Shown piece by piece: positions 867-34,765 of a stretch of 64,000 nucleotides of DNA. The notes beneath the pieces were generated by a model. It did no database searches. It worked only from the letters and a program-made list of their open reading frames with translations, and was not told where the DNA came from. Source of the stretch: Lytechinus pictus (lineage: Eukaryota). The DNA lies in contig NC_087245.1 of the NCBI RefSeq assembly GCF_037042905.1, positions 496,001 through 560,000 on the forward strand, read 5' to 3'. Positions within the stretch are counted from its first letter, which is position 1. Every line of letters starts with the position of its first letter. The position numbers were made by a program, and so were the translations under genes.

Positions 867-1206
867 CTGTGGAGATATATTGAGAAAGATCACATCAGCA
901 AGGCAGCAGATAGAGACATGCAGTCATCATGCATACATGTAGAAACACAGCAAATATATGTATAGATACAAAATAAGGATAGAGAAAGAGGGATGCCAAT
1001 GGGGAGAAAGAGATAAGAGAAAGGTAGAAAGGTAAAGACAAAGAGACAAGGAAGATTTGGGAGAGACAGAGGATTGAATACAAAAGAGGGAATAGTCAGG
1101 CCAAGAGGTAAAATAGAATGAAAGGATAATTCAGATGAAAATGTGGAGGAAAAGAAGAAGGTGAAGGGGGTCAAAAGAATAAAGTCAAGTAACCATGCAA
1201 TAATCC

Positions 1207-1300
1207 ATGCTAGCATTCCATAGTTGTAATGACATCAGTAAAATCTGATAATAATCTATGCTAGCATTCCATAGTTGTAATGACATCAGTAAAATTTGAT
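1207..1300. repeat. ~51-bp tandem duplication
   Basis: atgctagcattccatagttgtaatgacatcagtaaaat occurs twice. Confidence 0.85.
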
Positions 1301-2013
1301 GTTAATGCATAAACAAAAAGCACTACTAAAAGTTGAATATAAAAGGCCCTGAATGCTCCCCAAAAGGATTAATACAAAATATAATAAATTTACTATGCAA
1401 CTGAATAACATGAATACTGGGGAAAATGAACAGGAAGAAAAATAAAAAGAACTTCGAGGATTTAAAAAGAGTGGATGCGACTAATATCAAAGCTAAAACA
1501 AAGGTCAACTCTTTGCTTATTCATTAGAGATTGAATAAATTTCATTTCTATTTCTTGTGCTACTCTTGTTATTCACATGAAAAATCATTTTTTTTACACT
1601 AAAATCATAAAATTCTGCATCAGTACTAGGAAATAATTGATGCATTGATAATAGTAATAATAATAATAGTAATAATAATAATAATAAAAAGAAAAAAATT
1701 CCCCATATACTTCCAGAAAGAGGCTAAATAAATTTGTTTTCCTTGTTAGCACATTATTTACTTACACAAGCATACATATAAAGACCACAAAAAGCAACCA
1801 ATACAAATGTACATGTACATGTATGTACATGTACAGTGTCCATTATATAAAAGGAAACTGGTTTCACATTTAACACAAACACATTTATGAACACGCATGA
1901 GTAGTACATACATGTAGTTTTATCAAATGAAAATGAAAATTAGTGTAAGTTAGAATATGAAATATAAAGTTATTCAACATTAATCAAAATATGAAGCAGA
2001 AGTTAACACTTAA

Positions 2014-2949: not shown

Positions 2950-4039
2950 TTAAAGTAAGTTAGTACAGTGTACATGTATAATAATTGATGGATATAGAAT
3001 AATATGGGGGAATATGTTGTTAAATATATAATTCCTATTTGGACTCATGCACTAATTAGAGCTTTTAAATCTAAACCTATTTCATGATAAGTTCTATAAT
3101 TTGTCTAATAATCACTTTACTGTGATTATTACAATGTGACCTATACAAGAAAACTCAATTTTGCAGACAGTATTCTACACCCTACTGGTTTGCCCAATTC
3201 ATATCATACCTATAATTCTAGCTAACACTTCTTAGTCTACAAAAATATACACCTTTCTAATACATTGTATATAAACAACCAAAAAGGGGAGAGGGGATCA
3301 TACAATATTGTTGGTACAGTGGCAGATACAAGAGTTCATGTATGTGACATTGCTATAATGCATAAAAATGCATATTGATCAATATGTTTATTTGTCGATA
3401 GTTATCAATATCGGTAAGATATTTTAGCGATATATCGACAGAGAATTTTCTTAACGATAACAGCACCAGTTTCTTTATAAGCCATAGCGGTATTATGTAG
3501 ATCATCTGGCTGGCTACCTGGGGCTCTTTACAATTTACATATGACTGAAGAATGGTGACCATTTCTTGTACTATATGATATCCCATTGATGTACAGTAAC
3601 TGACTTGCTCTTAAAAACATGTTATATTAATAGTGCATAAGGTCACATGTAACTTTCAAATGAGCAGGTTTATTATAAAACAACCATTCTTGTACATAGT
3701 ATTATATAAAGGAAACCTTTAATAATTCATTAATGTACTTGAAATAAAGTACTTTCAGTATACTTTCAAAAACTCCTAAGAATTTTGGCTGATTACAAAA
3801 GAGAGACAAAAAGGGATAATATGCAAGAAACACATAAAAAAAAAAATAAAAAAAAAAAATGGGGCATGGGGCCATACATAAAACAAACAAAATATAACTG
3901 AAAAATGCAAACTAAACAAACCAAACAAAAAATTCAATGTATCTTTTGTCCGAGTGAACCCTCACAATTTTAAAACACAGAAATACAAAGAAAGACACAA
4001 CTCTGTTCACACTGACATTCTAAAACCCTTACTACTTAC

Positions 4040-4133
4040 ACATAGATTGGTTCCAATTGCATTGTTGCAGGTGGCTTTTGTGCATGTGAGTTGTAGGCAG
4101 TGTATGAAGAATCAAAACCACCGATAAAATCAA
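4040..4133 (-). CDS. NKAIN: NKAIN coding exon 6 (FDFIGGFDSSYTAYNSHAQKPPATMQLEPIY(V))
   Basis: Contains the FDFIGGFD and QLxPxY motifs of the NKAIN C-terminus. Acceptor ttttgtag. The GTAAGT donor overlaps an in-frame GTG-TAA (stop at 4036-4038 if unspliced). Confidence 0.93.
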
Positions 4134-5872
4134 CTACAAAACAAGAAAACAAAAAATGAAAAGAAAGGAACAAAAATAAAAATAGGCAAAGAAGAATGCT
4201 ATAAAATGTATAATAACAAATGATGAAAATCATAAAACATAATTTGAAGATAAAAGAAATAATAAAAATCATATTTATAATGGAGGATATATGAAAGTGA
4301 GAAAATGAAATGGTCCAGAAAGAAAAGTGATGATAAATTACAAACTATCTGAGTAATCTAGGGTCTGTGTGTAAAATGACTCACAATAAACTTACAAATT
4401 GATTTAAATTAAGAAAGTTACAAAGATGTACAGTATCAGAGAAGACAACAGACAATGCCCAAAGTACATGTATTCCATGTATAGAATAACATCTTTTTTT
4501 AATCTACACCCCCCCCCCTCATTCACAGCACATACATGTACATCTATGAACACATACATACATGTACAGTATCTATCCAAACACAGTTTTACTATCAAAA
4601 GCTTGTAATGTCAAATTGGAAATGTGAAAAATTAACATGGTTTTATTTTAGGAGCTCTTGGTTGCTACAATAATGTAATGCCTGTATCTACAGTATTGTA
4701 CATCTACTGTAGAATGCTAACATACATGTAGGGTGTGTTCAATGTTGATTTTCCAATTTAAACAACGCATGAATAAACACAAAATGCAATTACAAACACA
4801 GAACACAAAAACAATCAATGGTGCACCATTCACATTCAAATATTTAAAGGTGATGATATGTACATGTACGTTAATCATCTGTTCCCTCTCAAAAACTACA
4901 CATACTGTAACATCAGTGGAGCTTAGTGTGAAGTTTGATCCATCAAAAGAAAAGTCAACTCTAGCGCGAGCTTTTTGAAGTCATGTAAAAACTTCCACTG
5001 TGAGAGCACATTTTAAGAAGAGTGAAAAGAGAACAGGCAAAATTTTTTAACTTTGTGGTCAACATCGTAGGCAGCGCACGGTGCTAGTATACTGTAGTGT
5101 GACCGTGATGCTTCAAAAATGAAAACCTTATGGTAAGATCTGCACAAAAAAGTCTAAATTTCACAAAGAAATATGCAGGCGAATTTCTCTCCCATCTCCT
5201 GGACCCAATTAAACAGCATACCTGGTTGAGCCGAGTCGGCCAGCACTGAATAATCGCATGCATGCAAGCACTTTGTACTAGCACGCTCAACAGATGTCAA
5301 CTTTTTCCCATGAAGCATTGCAAATTTTGGCCTGTCCACTGCAACCGATAGATGGCGCACCGTATTGTGAATCCACCAAATTGAAGCTGATAGTCATGCA
5401 AAACGTACCCATTTAGGCATTTAAATTGTCCTCCAAATCGACATCTAAAAAAAACGTTACATTTTACTTAAACGACTGAGCATGGGGAACAATGAACACA
5501 CACTGTTCTTTTTATATCTGCATTCTGTAATTGCACTGTGTATCATGATTCATGTTGCTGTTTAAATTCAAAAATCGACATTGAACACACCCTGGTAAAC
5601 TACATATCCTACGTATCTACTACCAGCCCCAATGGAAGTCAGTCTTTAATGAACCTTAAGGATGGTTGAATATGGCGTGCATGTGCATTTAATTTATGAC
5701 GGTCTATTCATATCTTTCTCTACTCTTGAAGTGGTACATGAGCAACACAACTCATCATAACCCAAGTTGTCAAGTGGAAATTTTTTATTAGCACAGGCAG
5801 AGTTCCTCCATTCAGAATATGCGTAGTATGTCAGATAAGGCTCATGAGTTTAGCAATGTGTATTTGATAACA

Positions 5873-7417
5873 TTTCAACCAACGAACGTAGAGGGCAGCA
5901 ACACACTTCAGTGTTGCTTTTAGGAAGGTCCACTCCGCTCAGATTTTGTGACCACTTACATGTAAGCTCCGCCCCTCACTCAATGCACTTTTTTGGTAGA
6001 TTGTAGAGTTGATTTTTTCGGTTGTTCAATTTACTATATTTTATGGATACTGAAAACTCCACGAAATATTTTTTGAAAAAAGTAAGACAAAACGTAATCA
6101 TGATTCTTGTAGTTTGCACATAAATAAAGATACATAGTCTGATGACATTATATTACTGTTTTTCTGCTTAATTTTGCTGCCCATACCAAGCTACACCAAC
6201 ACCAGAGCCAATACCTTGATCTTCTGGCCTGGCCGCGCCGAAACTTCCCAGGACACATCGGTGCGCGTACTGCGCAAAGCCAGACATGGACCTGAACGAT
6301 ATGGACTTGATCTGTCATTGATGTGGCACTAACTGCCAGTTGCAATGATAAATGTTCAAGGTTAGAATCCTAATTTTCTCTTACAGTGTAGATCGGAGTC
6401 TGAAAATATAAAATAATTATGTGATATCCACAAATCCGACCCAACTTTTTTACAACCCATCAGGCAGATATCGAATACAGCCACCAGTCAAGTCCTAGTC
6501 CAAAGTTAGACCTAATTAACAGACCAAAATTATCTGGTCCAGTATCGAGCCATGTATGTTTTGATGGGCCTTGACTTGTGAACTATCAAGTGGCAAAGGT
6601 ATGTGTCACAGCTACTTTTTTCATTCTATAATTTCATCCAAATTTGTGTTAGCATGCACAAATACCAGCCAACCGTATCCTACCTCCGCACCTACCGGCC
6701 GGCTGGGGCGCCGGCGCGGTTGGTCAGCTATGACGCTGACACTCAAGCGATATGGCACTGCCGCTGGATTGTGTAGGCGCATTAATGTGGTGCAGCGAAA
6801 TTTAGATGAATGTTCAACCTCACGTATATTTGTTATCATATTGATATGCGAAAGACATAAAATTGTTATCACCACCACGTAATATTTCAGGAAAATACAG
6901 GAATGAATATTGAATATTTTTAAGCGTAAGATTTGCTGTAAAAATCTTTCAAGTACAAATGTTGAAAATGAGGAAATTAAAAAAAATCAATTCTACAATC
7001 TACTAAAAAAGTGCGCTGAGTGAGGGGCTGAGCTTAAAAGCGGTCACAAAATGAGCTTGACTAAATCGGAGTGAAATTAGCAGATTGGATCATTTGATGG
7101 CAGAATTCAATCCTGTTTACCGAAGAATTAAAAAAATATAAGTCAATAATCTAGTAATATTTTGAATTTCAAAATGTGGTACATGTACATTTGTTTTGAT
7201 ATTTTTGAATTTCTATTATTGGAATTTAGTCTTGTCATATTCTGTTAGTTTACCTCTTTTTTTTTTATTAATCTCTGAATGTATTGCGTCGGTTCATGGT
7301 TTCATTGGCATGCCTACCAAATTGTGTGCGCACTTTAATTGCATGCACGTATCAAGTGGACCTTCCTAATAGCAACACTGCCGTGTGTTGCTGCCCTCTA
7401 CGTTCGTTGATTTCAAC
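5873..7417. mobile_element. unclassified MITE with ~60-bp TIRs and an internal inverted pair
   Basis: caacgaacgtagagggcagcaacacac...ggaaggtccact is mirrored at 7355-7410. A second inverted pair lies at 5940-6020 / 6980-7055. Confidence 0.75.
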
Positions 7418-8551
7418 TATTCCATGAACATAAACATTATAAGGGTCCTGAATGAGAAAGATAAAATCAAATGAAAGTTTACCCAGGTATGTGTTTCATA
7501 AAGCTGTTGTTAGTTAGAAGCTACTTTAACATCAATGAAAATTTTGTTTATTTCCACAAGAAAGGATCACCAGTCATTCGTTAAGTCACTTGTAACTTAC
7601 AAACAGCTTTTATGAAACACCTTCAGGTGCTAAATTGGGAACGTAGCCGGTAGGATGTGAAAGCCAGTCACTGTAACTTGTCAAGCATTGTGAGCACCTC
7701 ACATAGCAACAGGCTGGAATACTCCTCATTGAGTGAAGGATGTACATATGTTGTGTCCCGGAATGACTGATTAAATCTGGTAACCGGAGTAATGATAATC
7801 TATAAAGCGATCATTCCTAATGACCCAATATCAACTTTCTTCTGTGCTTTTAGTTTGAGGCATTAACAAACAGGTCATCATAAGCAGTAGTGCTTGGAAT
7901 ATTGTAGACCCCCAAACTCCTCAGAATAATTTGTTGGTACCGGGTAAATTATTTCTTTTGATTTATTGGCAGACTAATCACAAGTATATTATGTAAGGAA
8001 TTTAAGAAAAAGGAAGGAGATAAAGAAAGGTTACCGGTATCTTTACCTGCACACAATACGAGTTGGCCTCCAATAATGTCAAACTTTATACTATGGTATA
8101 CCATCCTCCTAAACCTATAGTTAAATGCTGCACTATAATGTCCTTGGTTTATCACTGTACAGTGATCTATTAATATAATTATAATAACTCACATGGATTA
8201 GGGTTGATTAATAAAGTAGACAAGAACAAATAAGCATGGCATATTACCCAGTCATGTAAACAATTTGTAGGCTTGCAATCTACCGAAAAATTGGGATCTA
8301 TCATCTTTGCTTATAATCAAGTTCATTAAATTTGTAACCCCCTGAGTTGCCCTAATTTTAATGAGGGCAACTCAAGGGGGTTACAAATTTGCCGCAAATT
8401 TCGAAGGAATAATCTTATACATGTAGCCCCCGAACTTCCTTAAATATTAAACCCTTAAAGATCTTCTAGAGACTTTTCATGATAGAAACTCTATAGTATA
8501 ATACATGTATTGACCTGTCCTAGTTCATAACAGATACACCATCTTAAGAAT

Positions 8552-8790
8552 AGATGTACAAACACATACAGGTACGCTCTCTGAAGTAATCAATAGAGGA
8601 TTCCCCATACGAGATGTACGAACACATACAGGTACGCTCTCTGAAGTAATCAATAGAGGATTCCCCATACGAGATGTATGAACACATACAGGTACGCTCT
8701 CTGAAGTAATCAATAGAGGATTCCCCATACGAGATGTACAAACACATACAGGTACGCTCTCTGAAGTAATCAATAGAGGATTCCCCATAC
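8552..8790. repeat. 60-bp tandem repeat x4
   Basis: Near-identical units agatgtacaaacacatacaggtacgctctctgaagtaatcaatagaggattccccatacg. Confidence 0.95.
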
Positions 8791-9090
8791 CATGAGTTTA
8801 TTCAGGAGAATATTTGGCCCTAAAAAAGACCACCAAAACTCAATATTTCAACAGTCTTGTTGTCATCAGGAGAATGAACTACAGAGTATATCTGGCCATT
8901 TTCATTGGAAAAGAACAGCTCCTGCCTCTATTATTCTACAACGAAAGCTAATATCTATGAGAAGAAAAGGAGCAAACAGGCACCCGCATTACATGAATTA
9001 ATGCATAACGGTATCACACGCAAAGTTCATGCAGCTTATAAAAGCTATGCATAGCCAAAAGTGAATATAACAAATTAACAATATACTTAC

Positions 9091-9151
9091 AGCTGTCTTC
9101 TTCTTCGTTGAATTTTTTTAACATAACCATTGCCCAAATGATACCCAGGAC
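9091..9151 (-). CDS. NKAIN: NKAIN coding exon 5 (VLGIIWAMVMLKKFNEEEDS+T)
   Basis: Contains the EEEDS motif. Acceptor tgtag, donor GTAAGT, 61 bp, phase 0/1. It joins exon 6 to give EEEDSFDFIGGFD. Confidence 0.93.
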
Positions 9152-10215
9152 CTACATGTAGATAAACAAGGCAGATGAGAAGTGAGGACAAGAAAAGAGA
9201 AAGAAGAGAAAATACATGTTATGTACATGTAAGTTGTCATGGAAACTGGCTCAGGTACAGTCCAGGTGAAGGAGAATACTGTCATAAAAATGTCAAAATT
9301 GAAACAGAATGTGAGAACGACCTATAGGCCTATTGTAGATGGGTCTACAAAGAAATAGATGCTATGCGCCATGTACATGTATATCTGGAATATTAGGAGG
9401 AAACTTTAATGAGATTATGAATGATGGACAATAAATTACAATACCAATACTGGACAAGGAAACATCAGCTTTAATTTTATCAACTTTGTTACAATTTAAA
9501 CAATGAGTTTCATATCTGACAATGACTGAAATCCATGTTGCATATAAAGGCAGGAAATTTTGCTGTAAGGAAACTATGCTATCAAAATTCCATGGAAGTT
9601 TTGAAACCGGGATTTTGATTGGTTATTCAGCAATGTTGTCATAGTAATAATACAATCAATGACAGGGATATGATAATTTGTATAAAATGTTTCTCAGGAA
9701 GAGGGGTTTATTACAGCTTCTTATTCATTAGATACATTATTTTGTATTTTTCGTTTGATGATTCCATTTATATTTATCTTAGTCCATAATCCAAAGATTT
9801 ATCTGAATGTTTGTTATTATGAAAATGAAATTAGGTTTGCTATTTGGTAGGTACATGTATGACAGTCTGAAAATGAGGTTTGTATAGCTTTGTACTTTAA
9901 TACCCTATTTCATTTTGGGACTATCAAACTTTCAGAATAACACTCTTTTCATTTTAAGACAATCAGATCTTTGGAACAGAAAACCTTATTTTAGGGTTGG
10001 ATTAAAACCTTCCGAAAAACATACCATATTTTCTTTTCAGACCAATGGACATTCAGAATAATGACTGAAATGTCCAAATAAACAAAAACTTGGTCAAATC
10101 ATCCTAGTATGATTCTATTACCATACAGTTCATACAAATGTGTAATGGACTTTGGAATTGTGGGGGGGGGGAGCTGAGGGAACACATCGCCATTACACTG
10201 TACATTAATACTTAC

Positions 10216-10416
10216 ACATAAAAAGCATTGAAGAGCAGCATGAATAACCTCTACATATCTGTAGTCTAAGAGGCAACCAGTAACACCTATCCTCTCTGAT
10301 GTACTCATACCATTAGGCAATGTGGTGATGTTATATGTCACTGAACAATTAAAACCTTGCTCAATCCACCAACTTTCACTGCTGCTAGTGTTAAATGTAA
10401 GAATATAATGATGTTG
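10216..10416 (-). CDS. NKAIN: NKAIN coding exon 4 (QHHYILTFNT...SWWIEQGFNC...VTGCLLDYRYVEVIHAALQCFLC)
   Basis: Contains the LTFN, SWW and GCLLDYxYxE motifs. Acceptor T-tract plus gcag, donor GTAAGT, 201 bp. Confidence 0.95.
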
Positions 10417-11084
10417 CTGCAAAAAAAAATAAAAGACAGAGAGAAAAAAAATCACTGATAGTCTAAAATCAATTCCTGTTTTAAATTTAATTGCCTGCCT
10501 TGAATAATTGTAATGAAGAGCTACATACATGTACGTACGGTACTACACATACATGAAATACAGAATACTGAATTACAGACAACTTTAATAATTCATTACT
10601 TCTTTAAGAGCCCGGTTTCATGGACTACAAGTACAGTATTATTGACAAAACATGTACATGTTTGAACTTTGATCTACATGTATAGGCTTTTATTACTCTT
10701 TAAAAACAGTTACACATCAACTACAATATAATTTTTTTAAACTGAGATTCACACACAAAAACACAGTACCTGTACATCTCTTACTTACATGTATGTCATA
10801 AAAAACATTCTGAGATTCAGGAATCAGAATTGATATTTCCACGGTATGAGCACTCTGGAAAATGACAAGCCATGTGAACTTGTCAAGTTCCAATCATACA
10901 AAGTACAGTGTGACTTATCCGCACTTTCAAAATCTTATACAGATTTATGCCCAGTTTCTTGAACACCGTCATTTATCATTGATGTTTGCATTGATATTAG
11001 AATGAGTCGAGTGTTGTTTTGAGAGATGGTTTTCGTATTTCTTCCTGTACCATCATATGCATGTATAGAGAGTATGTACATGTA

Positions 11085-11270
11085 TGTTATGAACTTTTTT
11101 AGATGCTTTATGATAACTTGGCAAGCATCCCTGCAAATGTTATATGAGGTATTCCAAGCAGCTGACATTAATGGATTTGACAGCTAGAAAGCTTGTCTGG
11201 ATACCAGGCTTGCTATGATGAGGAATATATCCAATTCCTCTTTCACGATATTTCTGTCTGGTTTTTATAA
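11085..11270 (-). pseudogene. possible Harbinger-type transposase remnant
   Basis: VKEELDIFL...NTSYNICRDACQVIIKHLKKFI with an internal stop. It weakly resembles the HTH region of PIF/Harbinger nucleases. Confidence 0.3.
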
Positions 11271-11606
11271 TGTCAATGTGCATGAAAATTCAAATTTATG
11301 TTGGACATTCCTTCATTGTAGCTCTCAATCTCATACATGTACAGGTATCCTCCCTGTTCTTTCATTTCCAAATTTCATCTACCCAATTTCATAGAGGAAT
11401 CTCGCTCGGCCTTCCACGCTCAACATACATGTCCACATCTGTTTTTAAGATAGTGTATAAATCTACTGTACGTCTGGCAGGGAATGGCAATAAAGGCCAT
11501 CCTGTACTAAAACCAGCTCAGAATGCCCTGAACATTATTACACTTGCCCTGTCTATAATTTTAATAAACCAACTCTGTCCCATCATGGAAATCCAGGGTT
11601 ACTTAA

Positions 11607-12349
11607 CCCTATAGCACCAACAGATTCCTATGCATAATGGCAATTACTCACTGGAGGAAACGATAAAACTGGTAATAAGTAGGCATTGTTCCAAACAAAT
11701 TGAAATAGTTTTTTATAAATTTACTTTTGTTCATTACAAGTTATATTTATTTTGTAGCATAGGACTTGTTGAATAGAATGGTACATGGCAAAGTTCAATC
11801 AGATGTACGAATATTGACCTTTGACAATCGTTTGCAGAGCGAGAAGAAAAAAAACAAAAGTTCGGGTTTCAGCCGCCCCAGTCCCACGCCTTCAAAAAAA
11901 TGTAAAGTATCACTGACAGAATACTAAAGTTTTCGCCAAATCTTGGATCAAATATGTCAAAAAATTAATTCCAACTCACATCTAGATGTCACTCTGTGTG
12001 ATATCCAACGTTTTGATGAACATATAGCAACGCCCGAGCTTCTTCGGCGAAGTAAGTGGTTTTCCGAGACATGGACGCAGCCATCTTTGCTGAGATCGAC
12101 TGCGCAACAGTCTGGAACTTGCTACACACCGATGCATGTCAATCGGTTTTTCTCTATTATACTCAATAGGAGCATACACTTTTCTATGCAGATCTATGTA
12201 GCAGCCAACCTATGCGGTATGCACACGCAATATTACCACGGTAAATCATAGACAAGAGATACTATAGCGCAAAGAAAACGTACGGGCGGTTAAAGGCGGT
12301 TCAGTGTGAAATAGGAAGGGCGGTCTCGGGCGGTTCAGGTGCTAAAGGG
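11607..12349. mobile_element. piggyBac-like MITE
   Basis: TTAA TSD, TIR CCCTATAGCACC / GGTGCTAAAGGG. Confidence 0.8.
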
Positions 12350-12739
12350 TTAAAATGTAGGCCTATATCTGTGATTTTCATTAATTTTCTGTTTTCTCCC
12401 TGTGCAAGTATGTAGCCTAGACTATCAGTATAGAATATGACATTACTGTGTAAAATAATATTATTATTGAACAACAGTACATGTACATGTATGAAGAGCA
12501 ACTTTAATGTGGTATATTTTTTGTACGTATAAATCTTTGGGGATGCATATACATACATGTACATGTTGTCTACATCATAGTAAATACTACAACATGACTG
12601 CAGAGAAACTATACTGATAGGAATAGCTTTGAGATTGTATACATGTAAAGCCTACATTTGTAGATTGTTATTGAAGAATAAGTCAGGGAAAATGCGGGCA
12701 ATTTTCTCTTGATTTTGAAATATTTCCAAAAGCAGTAAA

Positions 12740-13118
12740 GGGCGATTCCATGCTAGAAAAATCAGCCATTTTCACAACATTTTTCAACCTGCTGTCCAAA
12801 AGAACTTTAATTTGCTTTGTGGTAATATTAAAGTACTACTGGGTAAACATGCAAAAAACTGACAGCCAATATGTTGTCCATACATGTAGGTGAATTAGAG
12901 CTAAAAATGTTGAGTGTTGTACGGGACATTTCTGCGTCCCGTACGACACACAACATTATTACTATAATTACCCATAATCAATTTTTTTTGTGTTGGTTAT
13001 TAGTTTTTCACATAACTACCCACTATACAATGTAGCTTTATCATTGACAAAAAAGGATATTTTATTGCTCAAGCATTCGGCTGTCAAAATGTCCCGTACA
13101 ACACCTATGGAATCACCC
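12740..13118. mobile_element. GGG...CCC MITE (Sola2-like)
   Basis: TIR GGGCGATTCCAT / ATGGAATCACCC, flanks TAAA/TATA, internal gtcccgtac repeats. Confidence 0.65.
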
Positions 13119-22091: not shown

Positions 22092-23459
22092 AAGTGGAGC
22101 GCCTCTGGCAGTCTCACCTGCATCGTGCGATTCAATATAGAAGCAGTGCTGACTTTAAAAACTAATATTAAATAATTATTTTAAAAAAACACCATTCATA
22201 TAATGATACAATACATGTACTACATGTACGTTCATTGACAATAAATGACATTTGACCTTGATCATGCGACCTAAGTCTTGTCTGTGATACTCGATTACCC
22301 CTATATCCACATTTTATAAACTAGATCTACATGTATAAACTTTGAAAGTAATGACAGTAATCTAATAATTACCTCCAAAGTGGCCAAATTTCAATGACCT
22401 TAAATGACCTTTGACTTTGGTCATGTGACCTGAAACTCGCATGAGATGTTCAGTGATACTTGATTACTCTTCTGTCCAAGTTTTATGAACTACATCCATA
22501 CACTTTCAGAGTTATGATGGTTATTCAACGAATACCCCCAACATGGCGAAAGTCCATTGACCTTGGTCATGTGACCTGACTCTCGCACAGGATGTTCAGT
22601 GATACTTGATTACTCTTATGTCTAAGTTTCATGAATCAGATCCATAAACTTTCAAAGTTATGATGGTAATTCTACAAATACCCCCAACTACATGTAGGCC
22701 AAAGTTCGTTGACCTTAAATGACCTTGATCATGTGACCTGAAACTCGCACAGGCTGTTCAGTGATACTTGATTACTCTTATATCTAAATTTTATGAACTA
22801 GACCAATAAACATTCAAACTTATGATGGTAATTCAACAAATACCCCCAACTTTGCCAAAGTTCATTGACCTTACATGACCTTTGACCTTGATCATGTGAC
22901 CTAAAACTCGCACAGGATGTTCAGTGATACTTGATTACTCTTATGTCCAAGTTTCATGAATAAGATCCATAAACTTTCAAAGTTATGATGGTAATTCAAC
23001 AGATACCCCCAACTTGGCCAAAGTTTAATATTTGACCCTAAATGACCTTTGACCTTGGTCATGTAACTTGAAACTCAGGCAGGATGTTCAGTAATACTTG
23101 ATTAACCTTGTGTCCAAGTTTCATGAACTAGGTCCATATATTTTTTAAGCTATGATGACATTTCAAAAACTTAACCTTAGGTTTAAGATTTGATGTTTAT
23201 TCCCCCAACATGGTCTAAGTTCATTGACCCTAAATGACCTATGACCTTGGTCATGTGACCTGAAACTCACGTAGGATCTTCAGTAATACTTGATTAACCT
23301 TATAGCCAAGTTTTATGAACTACATGTACGTGTAGGTCCATATACTTTCTAAGTTATGCTGTCATTTTAAAGACTTAACCTTTGATTAAGATTTGGTGTT
23401 GACGCCGCCGCCGTCAGAAAAGCGGCGCCTTTAGTCTCACTCTGCTTCGCAAGTGAGAC
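22092..23459 (-). mobile_element. Helentron-like non-autonomous element, longest tandem array
   Basis: Same ends, with roughly 7 copies of the ~160-bp unit. Confidence 0.82.
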
Positions 23460-23469
23460 AAAAATGAAA

Positions 23470-24170
23470 GATGAATAAGACGTAATTATAAACAAAGAAA
23501 TACATAAGAAAATTAATTAAGAAGATGAAAGAATGAAACAAAGAAATACATGAGAAATTATAGAAAAAGAAAATGGAAGAAGGAGAAAAGAAATAAAAAA
23601 GATTCCGTACAAAAAAAGATAAGAGTTTAACATCAGAATACACAGAACTGACAGAAGAAAAATTAAAAAAAAGATCAAAACAAAGAAATACATAAGATTT
23701 GAAAGAAAAGAGAATGAAAAGAATTAAAACACATAGAAATACAAGAAAACAGAAGGATAGAACAAAATACATACAAGAACTGATAGAAGATGAAAGAATT
23801 AAAACAAGAAAATACCTAAGAATTGATAGAAGAAAAGATGATGATAAAAATAAAACAGGGAAATACATATAAAGAATTGATAGAAGAAAAGATGAAAGAA
23901 AAATTAAAACAAAAAAATACACAATAATTGATATAACAACAGATGAAAGAAGAGTTACATGTAAACATAGAAATATCTAAAGACTTGATAGAGAAGAAAA
24001 GATGCAAGAAAATTAAAACATAGAAATACATAAGAATTTATAGAAGAAAATATGAAATAAAAATTAAAACAAAGAAATACACAGAACCAACAGGAGAAAA
24101 AAATAAAAACAAAGAAATACATAAGATTTAATAGAAAAGAGAGTGAAAGAAGAACTATAACATATTACAG
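23470..24170. repeat. purine-rich degenerate minisatellite (~40-bp unit)
   Basis: Recurrent aattaaaacaagaaatacataagaattgatagaagaaaa. It resumes near 30820-31010. Confidence 0.8.
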
Positions 24171-24862
24171 AAATACACATGTGGGCATTTTCACCACAGC
24201 TGGACACAGAGGCAAAAAAATCAAGTTGATATTCATGTCAAATGCTTTATGTTTTTTAATAAAACAAGACCTGAAGTTTCTGAGACAAAAATTTTCCCAC
24301 TCTGGCAGACATTTTTCATTTCAAAATGGCTGCCAAAGTATGGATACAAATTAGTGTTGAAAATAGTATATTGATACATATTTTGTTTTGACAGATTTTT
24401 AAAGAACAGGTTTGATCATGTTGTTTTCGCCTGTGATTTAGCTTGTTATTATAACACTTTTTAAAATCCCACAGAAAGAAACACCAGTAATTCATTCATC
24501 TGATAAAAAAACATTGATGAAGTACATGTATGTGATATGGTATGTAATGTCAGTTACTGAAAACATGAACTTTTTTTTCTCATTTCCTGGAAAAGAGGAT
24601 ATATTATATGAAACTTGGTAGATTTCCTCTCTAGGTAGCACCACCCCCCCCCCCCCCTTCTACACCAAAATTAAAGATTACCAATTAACAATGAAGCCAT
24701 AGGGTACCATTAAATATATGTACATGTAATGTCAGTTACCAAATGGAAAATGTAATGTCAGTTACCGAGATGTAATGTCAGTTACCATGATAAAATGTTG
24801 GTTACCAATATTGAAATGCAAATATGTGGTCAATTTTATGGTGAAGAAATATTGTATACTTG

Positions 24863-26325
24863 TTATTAAAGTTGAATTAAGAAGACGATTCCAAATATTG
24901 AGATATTTACATTAATAGCAACCTTACAACCCCCCAAACACTAATAGGTGATTCGACCCCCATTTTCTTTTTTCAAAATAGTGAATTTGAACGATTTATC
25001 CCTACCCATTTCCCTGAGTTCGCTCCTGCAATGCCTACCGAGACGGGTGTTCTTTGAGCGTGACGTCACCGGGGGGTATTCGGTCCCGGTGTAGTAATCA
25101 AGGCAGTGCCGTTTTGTGTACTATGCACGTACTCCTTCATATGGAATAACTGCAGTTGAAGTTGTATCTGCGAGCCATAGAACTTGCAAAGAGGAAATGA
25201 TTAAAATATTTGTGGCCGTACTATTATTACAAATATGTGAATTCCCTCAGAATGATACCATAGACCCTAAAGGAATAATTTCAAGGTGAATAATATGAAA
25301 TTTGATCGAGATCTTCTCACCAGTCGATAACGTAGCAGACGTGTTATTATGACATATTTATCCGCGTGTGACGCGGCTCTTGCAAAAAAACACAGTTGGT
25401 TGCGGAATTGCTTTGTGCCGACCGGCCGCCCGCTCCGGCGCAGCTAGCTGTCGAGCTACCGTACCGTTCTTGTTGTCTTCAACCATAGAGATGTATACTA
25501 ATTACTATATATCTTACTGTCTTCATCTCACTTCCGAATTGCGTTTGTATGTGTGACGGTGACCCCTAGCGTAATTAAATATAGAAAACAACTCAGAAGG
25601 CCGAGAAAGAATACTACGTTTGGTTCAAGATTGTTCTGTGGAATGAGCTATGAGTGGAAATGATCCAGAGGATATAAAAGTGGAGTCAAAGACAAAAGAA
25701 AAGAAGAAAAAACGCCAGGGGATCGCTGCACGGCCATGAACTAAGTCGACATACCAGACCATAACAGTACACTCAATGCCTGGGTGTTGTGTGTACTAGT
25801 ATTATGCGTTCAGCGCGCGCTGAGCTAGCCGCCGGAATTACTTTCCAGCTACTCACTTGATTGAACATCGTGATAAAATAAATGAGAAATAGTGAAAATA
25901 TCATTCAATAACTCACTGTTTGCTATCTTACATCATGATTGAAGAGTTCATGGTTGTTATTCATACTGTTTTTTATACAGGGAAAGTAAAGATTTGTACA
26001 TATCAGTCCTATTTATTTGATTTGAGTTGCTTTGAAAAAAAATTGTAAAATATCTTTCTCTCTCTGCATAGCATTTCTGTATGACATTCAGGCACCTCTT
26101 ATACTAAATTCCCCCCGGTGACGTCACACTCCGAGTGACTTTTCTGTACACTCGTCTCTCGGGCTCTGACAGGTGGCTAATTTCATAGACTTTCAAAGCA
26201 AAATATCGAGAAGGCAGAGGATTATTGTGACATGCTATGTGTTTGAACAACTTATATATACTATATATTGTATGTAGAACCTATATTTATGGAAACTCAC
26301 CCCCTTCTTAATTCAACTTTAATAA
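24863..26325. mobile_element. unclassified element with 22-bp inverted ends and a CpG-rich core
   Basis: TTATTAAAGTTGAATTAAGAAG is mirrored at 26304-26325, with an inner inverted GTGACGTCACCGGGGGG pair. No TSD is visible. Confidence 0.6.
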
Positions 26326-27499
26326 AGTCTTTCACTTTAAAAGTCACACCAGAAGGAGCTTGCTGTTAACTTTTAAAAGGTATACAGTAGTTCACAAGGA
26401 ATACTATATGAAATTATGAAGGAAGTTGCATTCCCATCGTGCAAAAAAAAATTACTATGAAATTGTTTTGTACATGCACTTACCAATTACCTAATTGTTT
26501 GTATTTCGGGGGGGGGGGGTAGGGGGTACTTTTCCCAACCTATTGCCTAAATCTGCAACATTTTTTAAGCTTAACATTGTGATGAAGGAGATTTCCAGGG
26601 TCCCTTTTTTAGTTTCTAGGATTCTTTTGAGCATTGCCTCGCTAAAAGTAAATTCCTGGTTTTTATACACGGTCTGTTAGTAGTGCGGATGTGTGATACA
26701 ATTTTGTTTTTGGTTTACAAGTATAGATGAAAAGTGAAATTTGACAGTTCTGATCAATGTTGCATGGATCTACTAAAACTGTTTTTTTTTTCTTATTTAC
26801 AAATAGTTCAGTTTCAGTTTGGAAGCTGGAGTTTATTTTTTGTTGACAGCTTAAAAAAGAAATTAGCAAAGAAAATGATTAAACAAATTATGAAGAGAAT
26901 TGAAATCCGACAGATATGAACAAGCATTGCTTGCACTGAGCAGAATAGAAATCAATAAAACTACATGGCTGCATGAGATTCGGGGGAGGGGTACGTGTAG
27001 CCTAGGTAGACCCTTATTCATTTTGCCTTTTTTGAGGGGAGGTTGGAGAAGGAAAAGGTTTAAAAAGTCAATATAAAACTGATGAATATATTATGGGTGT
27101 ATAGTCAGAAAAATCCATGTGTACAGTCAATGCAATATTAAATTACTATAGGAAAACATGAAGCTGCTATGACGCCACCCCCCCCCCCCCCCCCCGAGTA
27201 AGTAAAACATACATTTCTTATCTTTTGATAATTAAAAATGTGAAGTATTATGGAACTTTTATGATTTTAAAAAGCCTTACATATACATGTAAGTACCAAG
27301 AAAAATTATGCCTTTGAAAATCATATAGCACTGGTAAATGTTAATGTGTATTGTCAGTTACCGACAAGTAATGATAAAAATGTTCAAATCAAAGAAAGGA
27401 AGTAAGAAAAAGAAAAAGTTTTTTCATTGAAATGTTCCTAGAAACTCGGGTATACTTCCACATCAAGCTCACTTTCATGTGAAGCCCTGCACAGAAGAT

Positions 27500-28139
27500 C
27501 CCGGAGGGGCCACTTCCATTGACCAGTGGAAACCATGCGCGACCACGGGGTCTTGAAAAGCACCCTAAACACGTATTTTCCATATTCTGAAACTATACCC
27601 TTAACAAGTATTGGCATGTGAAACTATACCCTTAACAAGTATTGGAAACAAATACTATTGGCAAGTATTCCCAGAATTGAGCCCCTAAACAAGTACAGCG
27701 ATGTATTTTCCATATTCTGAAACGAAATGATACTCTTGGCAAGTATTCCCTGAAATGAACCCCTAAACAAGTACAGCGATGTTTTATTGTTGTCACGGGT
27801 CCGTCGGTCGTCGGTTTTACCTTTACACACCATTATTATGGTTTAGTACGGCCCCACCATCCACACCACGCGCAAATCGGACTCTAAACACGTAGCGTTG
27901 GGGCAAAAAGGACATCCTTTATAAAACATTTTGATATTGTTTCATCATCCCCACATATTTGACCCTAAACACGTATATTTTTCCGAGCGAAATAGATACC
28001 CTTTTTTCAATATTTTTGTGTTTTTGACACCCTTATCATGTTACGTACGTAACATGCCCTATCTTAAAAAAGACATCCTTTTTACGTGTTTTTTTGGTCG
28101 CGCATGGTATCCACTCGTCAATGTAAGTGGCCCCCCGGG
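27500..28139. mobile_element. poly-G/C-TIR MITE, copy B
   Basis: Same TIR, 8-bp TSD CAGAAGAT. Confidence 0.85.
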
Positions 28140-29031
28140 CAGAAGATACAATGCAATGATTCCACACATTTGACTTCCATGTGTTATAAATCTCTATGGC
28201 AAATTAAGTGTAATGTCAGTTACCGTAATGTCAGTTACCGTAATGTCAGTTACCAGCATGGTTGTGGAAAAACTATCATAGCCCCCAAAAGACAACAAGT
28301 GGAACGCCTCTGGCAGTCTCGCCTGCATTACGCGATTTAATATAGCAGCAGTGCTAACTTTGAAAACTACAATAAAATAATCATTCACAAAAACACCATT
28401 CATATAATGACATAATACCACGTTCATTGACCATAAATGACATTTGAACGGTGACTTAAGACTTGTCAACTACACCCATGTCCACATTTCATTCACTCTA
28501 TCCATAAACTTTCAAAGTTATGATGGCAATTCAACAAATACCCCCAACACGGCCAAAGTTCATTGACCTTAAATGACCATTGACCATGGTCATGTGACCT
28601 GAAACTCGCACAGGATATTCAGTGGTACTTGATTAACCTAATGTCCAAGTTTCATGAACTAGATCCATAAATTTTCAAAGTTATGATGGTAATTCAACAA
28701 ATACCCCCAACTTGGCCAAAGTTCATTGACCCTAAATGACCTTTGACATTGATCATGTGACCTGAAACTCAGGCAGGATGTTCACTCATACTTGATTAAC
28801 CTTATGTCCAAGTTTCATGAACTAGATCCATAAATTTTCAAAGTTATGATAGTAATTCAACAAATACCCCCAACTTGACCAAAGTTCATTGACCCTAAAT
28901 GACCTTTGACCTTGGTCACGTGACTTGAAACTCGAGCAGGATGTTCACTAATACTTGATTGACCTTATGCCCAAGTTTCATGAACTAGGTCCATATACTT
29001 TCTAAGTTATGATGTCATTTCAAAAACTTAA

Positions 29032-29621
29032 AGGAGAATGAAACCCTTGAAACCAGCTGAATCCATATCAAAGAGAAAAATCAAAGAAACATATTGTTGA
29101 AAGTTTGAGGAAGATTAAATGAATAATAAGAAAGTTATGAGCATTTGAATATTGAGATCACTAGTGCCATGTAGATCCTCCCATCGGCAATGTGACCAAG
29201 ATCCGTGATATCACACACGTACAACTCCCTCATTACTTTAGTACTTATTTCACTTATATTCTCACTTTTATAGAGTCTATCACAAGGTGAGGTGTTCTCT
29301 GTATGAGATGACAAGTACAGAGGTTTCACAACATTATATCATTGATGAATCGTTTGTCATATGATTAGAATGAGCAAAAAGAGATGTTTTGGGGTATATT
29401 TTCAGTGTCTAAATGGGAGAGTTGTACGTGTGTGACATCACAGATCTTGGTCGCATTGCCAATGGGAGGATCTCCATAGCATTAGTGATCTCGACATTCA
29501 AATGCTCATAACTCTTTTATTGGCAATTGCTAGTCCTATTTTACTCAAAGTTTTGTTGATCTTATTCTTTGATTTTTCTGCTTTCACAAAAGCTAACTTG
29601 CTCCAAGAGTTTCATTCTCCT
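29032..29621. mobile_element. Kolobok-like MITE
   Basis: TTAA TSD, TIR AGGAGAATGAAAC, long imperfect internal inverted repeats. Confidence 0.85.
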
Positions 29622-29782
29622 TTAACCTCCGGTTAAGATTTTGAAAATAATTCTCCCAACATGGTCTCAGTTCATTGACCCTAAATGACCTTTGACCTTG
29701 GTCATGTGACCTGAAACTCAGGTAGGATGTTCAGTAATACTTGATTATCCTTATGGCCAAGTTTCATGAACTAGGTCCATAT

Positions 29783-30324
29783 AATCGCTGATGTGGTTTA
29801 CGGTACACCATGTGAAGTGTTGTAGAAACAGTGGATAGGAGAAGTGAAGAAATGGATAGGCGAGAAAGTGGAGATTTGAGAGTGGAGTATTCTTTCTTGA
29901 AAGTAGTCCTGAAAAGGACTGTAAACCAGGAAAGATTGATGAGTTAAGAACAGCTTGAGTAGTAGAGCTAGTGAGGAGATGCTGGCTTGAGTCGGCGAGT
30001 AGAGATGATGAGTAGTAGAGTCTCTCTACTACTCATCATCTCTACTCGCCGACTCAAGCCTCATCATCTCTACTCGCCGACTCAAGCCAGCATCTCCTCA
30101 CTAGCTCTACTACTCAAGCTGTTCTTAACTCATCAATCTTTCCTGGTTTACAGTCCTTTTCAGGACTACTTTCAAGAAAGAATACTCCACTCTCAAATCT
30201 CCACTTTCTCGCCTATCCATTTCTTCACTTCTCCTATCCACTGTTTCTACAACACTTCACATGGTGTACCGTAAACCACATCAGCGATTGTACATACCAC
30301 CATGCAAACCTTCAAACAACATCT
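29783..30324. mobile_element. Penelope-like inverted-repeat insertion
   Basis: 238-bp inverted arms, 3-nt loop, 35-nt unpaired tail. TSD TAGGTCCATAT at 29772-29782 and 30325-30335. Confidence 0.7.
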
Positions 30325-32980
30325 TAGGTCCATATACTTTTTAAGTTATGATGTCATTTCAAAAACTTAACCTTAGGTTAAGATTTGATGTTGACGCCGC
30401 CGCCGCCGCCGTCGGAAAAGCGGAGCCTATAGTCTCGCTCTGCTATGCAGGCGAGACAAAAACGAATTGTTTAATATTTTGACACATCTTTACCTAGTAA
30501 CGGAGGTATATTTACATATTCAAATTATTACTCTATCTACTCAGGGACATGAGACATTTCAATTTTAATGAACACCCTGAAATTGCATGTCCTTTTGCGT
30601 AATGTCAGTTACCGACACATTTTTGCTTGCTGATGCGTAAAAAAATGTGGTTACATAGGAAAACTAGTTAGTATCAGAGTATACAGCAAGGTTCACTTTA
30701 TTAACTCTATCAAAAGCAAACTCCCATCATTTGTTGTTTTAGAGATACATGTACACACGATGAAAGGTGTGAAAACATTGTGCCGTGTAATGTCAGTTAC
30801 TGTGAAAATGCCCATGTACATTGTAAGAAATCATAAAGAAGAAAACGGAAGGAGAGAGCAAAATATAATGTACATTAAGAGAAGAATTAAAAGGAGATGA
30901 AATTATCAAAAGGAGATACATAAAAATTCATAGAAAAAAAGAAGATAAATATAAAACCAGAAAAATACATAGACCTGAATATTGGAAAAGATAAAGAAAA
31001 AAATTTAAGGTATGTTTCAGAATTGATTGAGCATGTTTTCCCCTCACTGGAATAGGTACATGTACGATCACAGCACATCTCACGATTACCGCAGACATTT
31101 GTTCTTATCTTAACGGCCTCGCATATGTACCTCGTCTTTTGATAAGAAATTTCATGCCATGTTCGCTCCAAACGATTGTCTAGTGCAACGCCAGAGAGAC
31201 AGACCTAAACAGGGTATTACATGTAGATGATTTAATTACTGTGATTTTTTTTAATAAAATGCAGTAAAGGGAGACATTATTACATGTAGATAAATTCAAT
31301 TATAATATTAACAATAATCTTGTTCTTGTCCGAAAATACACACAAAAAACATTTCACTTAATTCATATCACATTAAATTTAGATTAGGGCAAACTCAAGA
31401 AAAGGTCACCATAGAGGACAAAGTTTCAATTCTATTTAAGAAAGTTATCTTTGGTGGAATAACAGAGCTAAACTGTTGAATTTTAAAATTATAATTATTA
31501 ATTGTATTATAATAATTATTTATAATCAGGTTTTAAATTTTATTATTTCTTGAAAAATAATTTTTCTATAAATTGATCTTCAAAACGGCATTTTATAACA
31601 TCGCTTATCGAAGCTACGTAATACTTGTAACTAAGCGGTTCAAGGGTCAAGCCTATTATATTGCGTTGTTTACGAATGGATTGAGGGATCTACACAAGAT
31701 CAGTCTGGTAAAAAAACCTCTCACTTTTCATATTTATACTAATAGTTTTTTTGCACCTTCATACGCATTAGGGCTTTTTACTTTTAGGCGTATGAAGGTG
31801 TAGAGTCCATAGTCTATAGATAAATAAAATGCAACAAATTTATGTGATTTGTAGGTTTAAAGATGAATTTCCTATCCATCCGTGTTTTGATGTCTCGCTT
31901 AGCCTGTATGGGGGAGGGTTTCAAGGCTTCATGATGAATAAGTATATATGTCAAAATATAAAAAAAAAACATTATCACAAAGTCCTCAAGGACAAGGCTA
32001 ACTAAGTCACTCATTCAATGAACAAGGTTATGATATAACCTTGTTCTCAATTACATATCCATGTGTTGCAAAATAAGGGTAGCAATGTTCGGCTTATTTT
32101 CTATTTTTCTTTGGGACAAATGCTTGATTTTTTTACACTGTCTGTTTCCATTACAGCTATTCATCTTATAACCTGGCTCTTAAGTAAATTTGATTCTTTA
32201 AATTATTTTTTCTTAATTAAAAATAGAGATTGAAAAATGAAAATTTTCTTACCATATTACTTTCCACCAATATAGGGCGTACACAAAAATATGCCCAAAA
32301 TTTAAGTTTTTGAGCGCTCTGGTGAATACAAAAATTATTCCCTGGTTACTAATGACAAATAAATTGCAACTGTATGGAAATAAGTAATTTTGGTCACAAA
32401 AGTGACATTTTAATCATTTTTTAAAGTGTGTGCTGTGTACAGCATTGGCATACCATAGTCCTACCTGTAGATTCCCCACAGGCAGGATGGTTGCAGTGAA
32501 CAAGTGAACTAGGTCTAGCCTTGAGGACTCCATGATGAAGGTTTCAAAAATTGGTTAATAAAAAGGTTAAAAATTGAAGGTTTCTTACCAGACCGATCTC
32601 GTGTAGATCCCTCGATCCGTTTTTCAACAAAGCAAATACAATAGGTCTGACCCTTGAACCGCTTCGTTATGATGTACCTTAGCGATTAGCGATGTTACAA
32701 ATGCCGTTTTGAAGAACAATTTATAGATAAAAATTATTATTTAACAAATACTAAAATTTAATATGTGATAAATATTAATTATTTATAATCACGTATTAAA
32801 TTTTAGTATTTGTTAAATATAATTTTTATCTATAAATTGTTCTTCAAAACAGCATTTTGTAACATCGCTAATGGAAGCTTGGAAGGTACATGTACGTCAT
32901 AACGAAGCGTTTCATGGGTCAGACCTATTGTATTTGCTTTGTTGACAAACGGATCGAGGGATCTACATGTAGCTACATGA

Positions 32981-34765
32981 ATCTTCTTGAATCTTGAAGA
33001 AGTACTCTCCCAAAAGCGTACACGCTGTCCTGGAGAGGGTTGTGCTGTGTCAGGTGCTGCCAGTGCTTCATGTGATGTGGTGATCCTGTGGTGGTATTCT
33101 TGGTGCACTATATACAGTGTGCTAGGTGCAGTGTGCGGGTGGTGCGTGTGTGTCCCTCTTACAGCATCTTAAGGGGAGGGGGAGGCAACATTTGCTGAAT
33201 GATAGGCAATGTTGCTCCCCGGAAGCCAGCTATAGAGGTCGAAGTTACAGCAGCGTTTGGGAGAGTATTCCAAATACGGATGGTTCTTGGGAACATACTG
33301 TACATGTAGCAGTTCACTCTACAAAAAGGCTGGGTGTACTTGAGCTGATGTCCAGTGTGTTGTGAACGTTGTGGACGAGAACTGCTGCTTAACTTAATCT
33401 GAAGTGGCATGTTGATGTAAACATAATTGTGATGAATTTTGTAGAACATCTCACATTGGCTAAGAAGGCGTCTGTGTTGGAGAGTATCCCAGTGAAGAGT
33501 TGACAACATCGATGTTACACTGGATTCTCTGCTATAGTCATGAAGGACAAACCGAGCACCCTGACGTTGAATGTTCTCAATAATGTTTACATCTTTCTGT
33601 ATGTGAGGATTCCATGCACATGAAGCATACTCAAGTTGAGGTCTGACAAGTTGCTTGTACGCAATGTCTCTCACTTTCAGGTTACATTTACCCAATGCTC
33701 GATGTATGATTCCAAGAGTACGAGCAGCTTTGGAGGATATCTTCTGTGCATGGGAGTTCCAACTCAGGTTGTCTGTGATGGTCACACCGAGGTATTTACA
33801 GGAGGTTGCCGTTGGAACAGGTTGGTCACTGATGGTAAAGTTGCAAGCCAAGGGTTGTCGTTTCAATGAGATACACATGTGGGCACACTTCTTGACATTG
33901 AAGGACATATCCCACAGTTTTGCCCAATCTGATAATGTTGAAAGATCTCGCTGGAGAATTACGTGGTCAGCTCTTGTCTTGACCTTGCGATACAGCACAC
34001 AGTCATCAGCAAAGAGTCTGATTGGTGATGAGATGCATTCACAGATGTCATTGATGTACAGCGGGAATAACACAGGCCCGAGTACTGAGCCTTGCGGCAC
34101 GCCTGAGAGTACACTGGCTCGTGGTGAGGATGTTCCATCAACATGAACTGACTGAGATCTGCCTGATAGAAAAGCTTTGATCCATCCATGCATTTGACCA
34201 GTAATGCCATAATACTCCAATTTGTAGAGCAGCTTCCTGTGTGATACCTTATCAAAGGCCTTACTAAAGTCGAGAAAGAAGGCGTCTGTCTGACATTGCT
34301 GGTCGATGTTGTATGCCCAGTCATTGATGGCCTCAACAAGTTGCGTTTCGCATGACAGTCCCTTCCTAAATCCATGTTGGTTTGGGTTGATGATGTTATT
34401 CTTTTCCAAGTATTTTGACATGTGGCTCAATACAATGTGCTCTAGGATCTTGCAGCAGATGCATGTGAGTGACACCGGTCTATAATTGGCTGGGTTACTC
34501 TTGTCGCCAGACTTGTAGATGCTGGCCACTTGAGCTCTTAGCCAATCACTTGGAAGAATTCCCTCATCATAGGATTGTTGGAAGAGATGAGTAAGGACTG
34601 GGCTAATCTCATCTGCATAGTCTCTTCACATTCTAGCAGGTATTTCATCTGGACCACTGGCTTTGTTGGTGTTAAGTTCTTTCAGTTGTTTATTCACTCC
34701 TCGTAAGCTGATGAAGAGATCTTCAATTGGTGTGTACGGTGAGGGACCCTTGTCTGGAATGAGAT
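32981..34765 (-). mobile_element. 5'-truncated CR1-group LINE
   Basis: Carries the RT ORF, an upstream KASGPDEIP segment separated by a TGA near 34627, and a short 3' UTR. Inserted into a foldback MITE arm. Confidence 0.9.
33159..34529 (-). CDS. non-LTR reverse transcriptase (partial ORF2, CR1 group)
   Basis: Motifs NYRPVSLT, QHGFRKG, DFSKAFDKV, GVPQGSVLGP, FADD, KYLGV, FPRTIRIWN. No endonuclease domain is present. Confidence 0.9.
   Translation of the reverse strand: MASIYKSGDKSNPANYRPVSLTCICCKILEHIVLSHMSKYLEKNNIINPNQHGFRKGLSCETQLVEAINDWAYNIDQQCQTDAFFLDFSKAFDKVSHRKLLYKLEYYGITGQMHGWIKAFLSGRSQSVHVDGTSSPRASVLSGVPQGSVLGPVLFPLYINDICECISSPIRLFADDCVLYRKVKTRADHVILQRDLSTLSDWAKLWDMSFNVKKCAHMCISLKRQPLACNFTISDQPVPTATSCKYLGVTITDNLSWNSHAQKISSKAARTLGIIHRALGKCNLKVRDIAYKQLVRPQLEYASCAWNPHIQKDVNIIENIQRQGARFVLHDYSRESSVTSMLSTLHWDTLQHRRLLSQCEMFYKIHHNYVYINMPLQIKLSSSSRPQRSQHTGHQLKYTQPFCRVNCYMYSMFPRTIRIWNTLPNAAVTSTSIAGFRGATLPIIQQMLPPPPLKML

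Follow-up and report, generated by a model that had tools for sequence, protein, structure and literature searches.

Octamers at TA dinucleotides in sharp-edged blocks of the Lytechinus pictus genome as probable excision scars of Tc1-family elements

A 64-kb window of the Lytechinus pictus genome (C1:496001-560000, where C1 is contig NC_087245.1 and the window is the whole stretch of DNA analysed) contains 80 exact copies of the octamer TACATGTA. Seventy-six of these copies lie in one dense block, at 2.3 per kb, which overlaps the NKAIN (Na,K-ATPase-interacting protein) gene, and each is read as a 6-bp scar at a TA dinucleotide. The octamers are probably excision scars of Tc1-family elements or of MITEs (miniature inverted-repeat transposable elements), with a chromosomal block and not a gene body as the unit in which they accumulate. 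The initial annotation of this DNA, made from the sequence alone, had proposed Tc1/mariner footprints restricted to a gene body. Its insertion at TA and its Tc1-type ends are supported by the analysis below, but the restriction to the gene body is not.

The octamer is far more frequent in the block than base composition predicts. In 100 dinucleotide-preserving shuffles of the window, the mean count is 2.16 and the maximum is 6, and none of the shuffles reaches 80. The earlier hand count of about 70 exact copies in 1-35 kb and about four beyond is close to the count obtained here (76 in 934-33308 and 4 elsewhere). The remaining four form two stacked pairs in two inverted copies of one repeat (at 40788 and 52466), and these only out-of-block copies of the window are inherited along with their repeat. 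The density of the block is 15-fold above that of 146.6 kb outside it (76 kb upstream, the window from 33.4 kb and 40 kb downstream), and the regions adjoining the window (80 kb upstream, 40 kb downstream) contain 0-3 copies per 4 kb. The genome (811.7 Mb in 368 contigs) has 224,046 copies in total, or 0.28 per kb, which is about one-eighth of the density of the NKAIN block. A ranking of octamers in 1-33.5 kb and 33.5-64 kb by a second-order Markov model places TACATGTA first for over-representation in the first part, homopolymers and simple repeats aside (76 against 3.3 expected); it is not among the top over-represented octamers of the second. An unbiased k-mer comparison picks out TACATGTA and its one-base extensions. 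The excess is confined to the full octamer, with CATGTA and TACATG elsewhere at expectation; counts summed over the 24 one-mismatch variants are 58 for 1-33.5 kb and 23 for the remainder of the window. A different public run, which may derive from the same animal, has contigs identical to 7382-8581 and 14027-14563, including three copies of TACATGTA, and the octamer is therefore not an assembly error. Genome-wide, pairs of TACATGTA 200-230 bases apart exceed the number expected under an even spread (5,953 versus 1,917), but a control word clusters as much at this distance (937 versus about 280), such that pair spacing adds little.

As had been proposed, the octamers are +6 insertions at TA and not substitutions. 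This was assessed in self-alignments of the 274 kb of sampled DNA (three dense blocks, 96.5 kb in all, and 177.7 kb of cold DNA), with gaps read against paralogous copies. The paralogs show TA and a 6-base gap in 27 alignments at site 13690, in 6 alignments at site 14006 and in 17 alignments at C1:3842223, a site in another block; the inserted bases thus have TA on both sides. Both of the paralog pairs cited in the initial annotation hold: the empty sequence GAACTAGATCC at 28656 aligns with the scarred sequence GAACTACATGTAGATCC at 13686, and the empty sequence CTGCTATGCAGG at 41937 and 30440 aligns with the scarred sequence CTGCTACATGTATGCAGG at 14002. Site 13690 lies in an old repeat of about 160 bp, and its TA is scarred or element-filled in other copies across the genome. 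When each position is taken from its best alignment, clean insertions of TA(CATGTA), TA(CTGTA) and TA(CACATGTA) are found in the block copies, together with +7 insertions.

Related words are enriched in the three blocks. With expected numbers taken from cold DNA, TACATGTA occurs 196 times versus 15, TAC(A/T)GTA 54 times versus 23, TACA(A/T)TGTA 25 times versus 2.7, TACACATGTA/TACATGTGTA 12 times versus 2.2 and TACAGTGTA/TACACTGTA 9 times versus 2.7. These minor words fit joining variants of CA(G/C)...(C/G)TG ends. Of the shorter Tc1/mariner footprint words that the initial annotation had called common here, TAC(A/T)GTA is enriched and TACATA/TATGTA is barely raised (126 versus 105). Scars are also stacked one upon another (Table 1), and pairs at a spacing of 6 number 5 versus 0.94 expected for random TA sites.

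The make-up of the octamer (TA, CA, TG and TA) fits Tc1-type ends, as had been suggested, and such ends are abundant in the genome. Three end types were found, all of which supply CA and TG. The first belongs to an intact family with a 1.9-kb element, copies of which are 99.4-99.7% identical and have an open frame of 342 aa. The encoded protein has the domains HTH_Tnp_Tc3_2 and DDE_3 (Pfam matches of 8.5e-19 and 9e-20), and the transposase is read as DD34E, with 34 residues counted between the second D and the E. The ends are TA-CACTACTCAAAAAAAG...GTAGTG-TA (TA-CACTAC...GTAGTG-TA, in short TA-CAC...GTG-TA); inverted terminal repeats are present and TA flanks all 11 of the 11 ends inspected. 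Domains, DD34E spacing, TA duplication and inverted ends all place this element in the Tc1 family. The 549 end matches genome-wide correspond to about 275 copies, one example of this young family being L026:449-2348 (loci L024-L033). A DDE_3 profile search gave 150 scored matches among 729 candidates; almost all of these share one score and an open frame of about 364 codons. The second end type, TA-CACAAC..., belongs to a non-coding relative of about 2 kb with 1,028 exact end matches. The third, TA-CAGTGCGT..., is found in several MITE families of 0.8-1.8 kb and has 8,240 matches versus 458 for a control word.

A search for a TA-flanked element with CATG ends yielded trivial scar matches and one element in a stacked scar only. 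CATG ends would leave self-complementary 4-base overhangs and would explain the uniform product; no such element was found in this search. Several candidates of the form TA-CA...TG-TA were rejected because they are inner parts of longer inverted repeats. Intact Tc1 copies often lie head to head, about 1.65 kb apart, in units of about 2.9 kb that these same ends delimit; this arrangement would suit an inverted-dimer form that can move as a unit. Resident Tc1-like ends often terminate (TA)n runs that start with TACATGTA, which looks like repeated use of neighbouring TA in TA microsatellites. Runs of at least 8 C (or G) number 58 and 61 in the window halves versus about 1, or about 60-80 times expectation, and some of them lie just within transposon ends (GTAAGTCCCCCCCC).

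Empty, scarred and filled forms of one site are found in the 160-bp repeat. Its GAAC-TA-GATCC sequence (GTTTCATGAAC-TA-GATCC) has an empty TA in most sampled copies, and 481 copies genome-wide read GTTTCATGAACTACA... Among the 100 matches listed, about a quarter (by eye) continue as TACATGTA and about a third as TACATGTGTA, a +8 form with identical flanks that is probably a sub-family inheriting one scar. Some scars are therefore inherited with repeats and are not independent events. Other listed copies show TACATTGTA, TACAATGTA, stacked forms, or CAGTG or CAG pieces, and two continue straight into an element end (CAGTGCGTC...), which in one case immediately follows a scar. The loci with empty, element-filled and footprint forms that the initial annotation had asked for were found among paralogous copies of one repeat and not as alleles. 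In addition, a copy of the 2-kb family (C1:2066029-2068441) is centred in a stacked scar within a dense block.

Scar density is set by place and not by sequence family. In the paralog-matched control (1,105 alignments, median identity 79.6%), repeat DNA with paralogs across a block edge has 25 sites in 17,454 bp inside the blocks and 0 in 24,515 bp outside; the 160-bp family alone has 6 sites per 4.8 kb in the blocks and 0 per 4.1 kb outside. Inside the blocks, density increases with the age of the DNA. Unique DNA has 2.19 copies of TACATGTA per kb, and DNA whose best paralog is 75-85%, 85-92% or 92-97% identical has 1.61, 0.57 and 0.35 per kb, respectively; the class of at least 97% identity consists of local duplications that bring their scars along. 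The scars have decayed little (76 exact versus an excess of about 30-35 one-mismatch forms). From this ratio, the mean scar age is estimated at near 5% divergence, and at a steady rate the onset would be near 10%. In the NKAIN block, 76 of 2,840 TA sites (about 3%) have been hit, so that, to an order of magnitude, a TA has been hit about as often as a base has been substituted.

The blocks are 25, 32 and 39 kb in size with sharp, box-like edges. These edges are not the ends of transcription units, to which they correspond roughly at NKAIN only. Exons of this gene and of TGF-beta-receptor-type-1-like and TRAK1-like genes were placed by tblastn with proteins of relatives. The NKAIN assignment has a Pfam match (ORF, open reading frame, 10099-10542), and one exon is 89% identical to a Strongylocentrotus protein. 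The second block (C1:3839.9-3864.6 kb, with 60 copies of TACATGTA) lies inside intron 2 of the TGF-beta-receptor-type-1-like gene, the exons of which are at 3833.7, 3840.07-3840.41 and 3867.7-3868.0 kb. Intron 1 of this gene is spared, with 3 sites over 6.3 kb, and no site lies in the final 3 kb of intron 2. The third block (C1:2034.07-2072.99 kb) covers two 5' introns of the TRAK1-like gene and 10 kb past the most 5' exon mapped; it stops 1.3 kb short of the next exon, and there are 0 sites in the 4 kb that follow, where three exons lie. Two of the three mapped blocks thus have edges within introns. An element shared by the six edges of the three blocks was sought, and none was found except a common repeat. 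Pfam scans of ORFs for neighbouring genes detected LINE (long interspersed nuclear element) domains and three single exons only.

It is unlikely, given these edges, that the target of insertion and excision is a transcribed or methylated gene body, with the transcription unit as the relevant unit. The claim that the octamers are gene-body-restricted describes the NKAIN block, which spans from about 3 kb past the last coding exon to 2 kb before exon 1. The other two blocks end inside introns, however, one extends 10 kb past its most 5' mapped exon, and the same genes are partly cold. A low CpG ratio accompanies the blocks without defining them. The median CpG observed/expected ratio is lower in the blocks than in cold DNA (0.47 versus 0.67, p about 1e-4), as a methylated gene body would predict, but 29 cold 2-kb bins with a ratio below 0.55 stay cold, with 0.29 copies of TACATGTA per kb.

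Some other features of the blocks and their surroundings were observed. Within 24.8-30.7 kb, an in-block stretch with one scar only, lies a perfect inverted repeat of 233 bases (window 29780-30292), with a spacer of 47 bases and a perfect 37-base palindrome at its centre. An 818-codon open frame (44187-46643, minus strand) in the scar-free half of the window has no Pfam match and is GC-richer (0.45); it is probably part of a mobile element. A Kunitz/BPTI domain exon (E-value: 5e-18; C1:3862495-3862842, plus strand) is located within the second block, in intron 2 of the TGF-beta-receptor-like gene, and could represent either a nested gene or an exon that has been captured.

Table 1. Positions of the block, scars, genes and elements discussed in the text (window coordinates unless a contig is given)
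Feature	Position	Strand	Remark
Dense block	934..33308		76 of 80 exact TACATGTA
Scar in copy of old 160-bp repeat	13690..13697		Empty window paralog at 28656-28666
Scar	14006..14013		Empty paralogs at 41937 and 30440
Scar in left arm of long inverted repeat	5957..5964		Right arm (about 7036) has plain TA; arms read by eye
Cluster	13851..13887		TACATGTA, then TACATGTA-CTG-TACATGTA; stacked +6, +5 and +6 scars
Stacked scars	1810..1833		TACATGTACATGTA and a third scar 10 bases further
More stacked pairs	12478, 14570, 19992, 21101		
Stacked pair in repeat (40788/40794)	40788..40801		Inverted copy has a pair at 52466-52479 (52466/52472)
Element-filled copy	C2:69862036		TA-CAGTGCGTCAAAAAAAAA
Element-filled copy	C1:9408330		TACATGTA-CAGTGCGTCCCAGAA; element in second TA of scar
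Resident Tc1-like MITE end	53925..53958	-	TA-CAGTGCGTCCCAC...; in scar-free part of window
NKAIN gene	4039..35255	-	tblastn of 219-aa sea-urchin NKAIN
NKAIN coding exons	35255-35187, 19954-19808, 16226-16131, 10422-10213, about 9175-9044, 4131-4039	-	tblastn
Reverse-transcriptase ORF (LINE-like)	33159..34625	-	NKAIN intron 1; has the block's last scar (33301-33308), frame kept

The proposed model for the origin of the scars is as follows. A Tc1-family element or non-autonomous MITE would insert at TA and duplicate it. On leaving, the transposase would cut two bases inside each end, such that CA and TG remain, and end-joining that keeps both overhangs would seal TA-CA-TG-TA and so leave the original TA six bases longer (+6). 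The two-base staggered cut and the end-joining are proposed because they follow from established Tc1/mariner chemistry. The scars would lie in the germ line and would have accumulated over roughly the last 10% of sequence divergence. Their unit would be a sharp-edged block of about 25-40 kb, one of which happens to match NKAIN. Inside the blocks, elements would be cut out and re-inserted repeatedly, with germ-line chromatin permitting excision and re-insertion being short-range; elements landing outside would stay immobile. Blocks would therefore be expected to have many scars, few residents and box-like edges. We infer this repeated local excision and re-insertion only weakly. A bolder reading is that the 25-40-kb blocks are germ-line arenas of repeated Tc1-like excision and re-insertion, that scar density preserves, as an inherited fossil record, the outline of a germ-line chromatin or replication domain, and that a so far undescribed sort of regional insertion mutator is at work; we regard this as possible but doubtful.

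A number of observations weigh against the proposed model. The series of filled, empty and scarred sites is paralogous and not allelic, and excision itself was not observed. In-block scars per kb are about 10 times the residents and scars outside taken together, and insertion as well as excision must therefore be biased. Resident elements are not concentrated in the blocks: of the CAGTG... MITE ends in the sampled DNA, 7 lie in the cold part (177.7 kb) and 0 in the blocks (96.5 kb), a scarcity for which the model itself would account. The context of the scars also differs from the target preference of the candidate elements. In 344 half-sites (stacked ones excluded), the base beside the scar TA is T in 0.30, C in 0.31, G in 0.27 and A in 0.12, followed by R at the +2 position and T at +3. 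Of 11 ends of the intact family, 9 have T beside TA, and A precedes TA in most of 100 CAGTGCGT ends listed (by eye). Because these flanks differ, the families found may not be the main source of the scars. Proximity of scars to residents is modest. The flanks of 10 intact copies have 6 copies of TACATGTA per 13.7 kb (0.44 per kb). TACATGTA lies at most 30 bases upstream of 24 of the 1,028 ends of the 2-kb family versus about 9 expected (2-3 times), with scar and end directly abutting, or separated by a (TA)n run, in 13 of the 24, and at most 30 bases from 193 of about 12,400 CAGTGCGT ends versus about 106 (1.8 times, the denominator being estimated). Element ends sitting in a scar's own TA number 55 versus about 40 expected.

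According to one published account, Tc1/mariner excision leaves the first or last 2-4 element bases between TA copies, and the canonical footprints of Sleeping Beauty and other Tc1/mariner elements are TACAGTA/TACTGTA (PMC6943129). The pattern here resembles these systems in that terminal bases are end-joined between duplicated TA and that the +5 words are enriched. It differs in that the main product is +6, with CA and TG both kept, and in that the scars have become fixed, at a block density of 2-3 per kb, in the genome of a wild animal and not at a reporter site. According to another account, C. elegans Tc1 leaves a +4 footprint, TACATA or TATGTA, in 73-78% of somatic excisions (PMC12632400). 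The candidate elements here share with Tc1 a DD34E-type transposase (on our own reading), a TA target and CA...TG ends. The dominance of +6 and the near-background level of +4 words in the blocks are a further point against our explanation.

The scars may equally be set beside those of Minos and beside local hopping. Minos leaves a six-base footprint, a net +6 between two TA, and its scar holds four bases of one end. The scars described here would instead hold two bases from each end, or four from a CATG end of the kind that the search above did not find. If DNA transposons hopped locally, one scar after another would come to lie close to the donor site; the distances known for such hops go far beyond 30 kb and show no box-like edge. 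Local hopping of a single element was rejected as the sole cause of a block, since the edges are box-like and about 76 consecutive local hops would be needed. No description of TACATGTA scars or of an excess of excision footprints in sea urchins was found in the open-access full-text literature.

Apart from gene-body targeting, several explanations compete with excision scarring of chromosomal blocks. An element-free, TA-directed process could write CATGTA, for example through a domesticated transposase or another TA nuclease with a fixed fill-in. Such a process would account for the uniform product (196 exact copies versus a few dozen variants in the three blocks), for scar flanks unlike those of resident elements and for blocks without residents. 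It is nevertheless improbable, as the variants hold longer end pieces (TACAGTGTA, and TACAG-TA stacked on TACATGTA) and a scarred TA has element-filled copies; we also know of no repair route that adds a fixed CATG.

Mosaic ancestry, in which the blocks are introgressed from a lineage with genome-wide hyperactive elements and the sharp edges are breakpoints, would suit box-shaped blocks of similar size whose edges are unrelated to gene structure. There is little to recommend it otherwise. The donor would need about 2 million scars genome-wide, young repeats are present inside the blocks, and no other sign of foreign ancestry was found in the sampled DNA, in which divergence was not compared. 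Selection for a functional motif, for example a dimeric-factor site or an intronic RNA signal, is harder still to believe. The octamer is a perfect palindrome with few decayed copies, as a selected site might be, but it arises by insertion at arbitrary TA in old repeat copies, stacks head to tail, has +5, +7 and +8 relatives and has unrelated loci filled.

For most of the sites, CpG decay, hexamer slippage and assembly artefact are ruled out: decay of TACACGTA or TACGTGTA could yield TACATGTA and the stacks resemble a (CATGTA)n microsatellite, but the paralogs show a 6-base gap and no substitution, the CpG precursors number 0 and 2 in 1-33.5 kb, stacked sites are only 5 of 76, and three sites are exact in the contigs of the other run.

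Excision scars of cut-and-paste elements have been described at reporter sites and at single loci. In this genome they would constitute a major sequence-specific source of insertions, with 224,046 genome copies of TACATGTA and 2-3 per kb in the blocks. If the octamers are indeed excision scars, the departure of cut-and-paste elements has a far larger influence on non-coding DNA than their presence, and counts of resident elements badly understate past activity. The rate of insertion per TA would be of about the same order as the rate of point substitution per base. The sharp blocks would also record a property of germ-line chromosomes that is readable from sequence alone.

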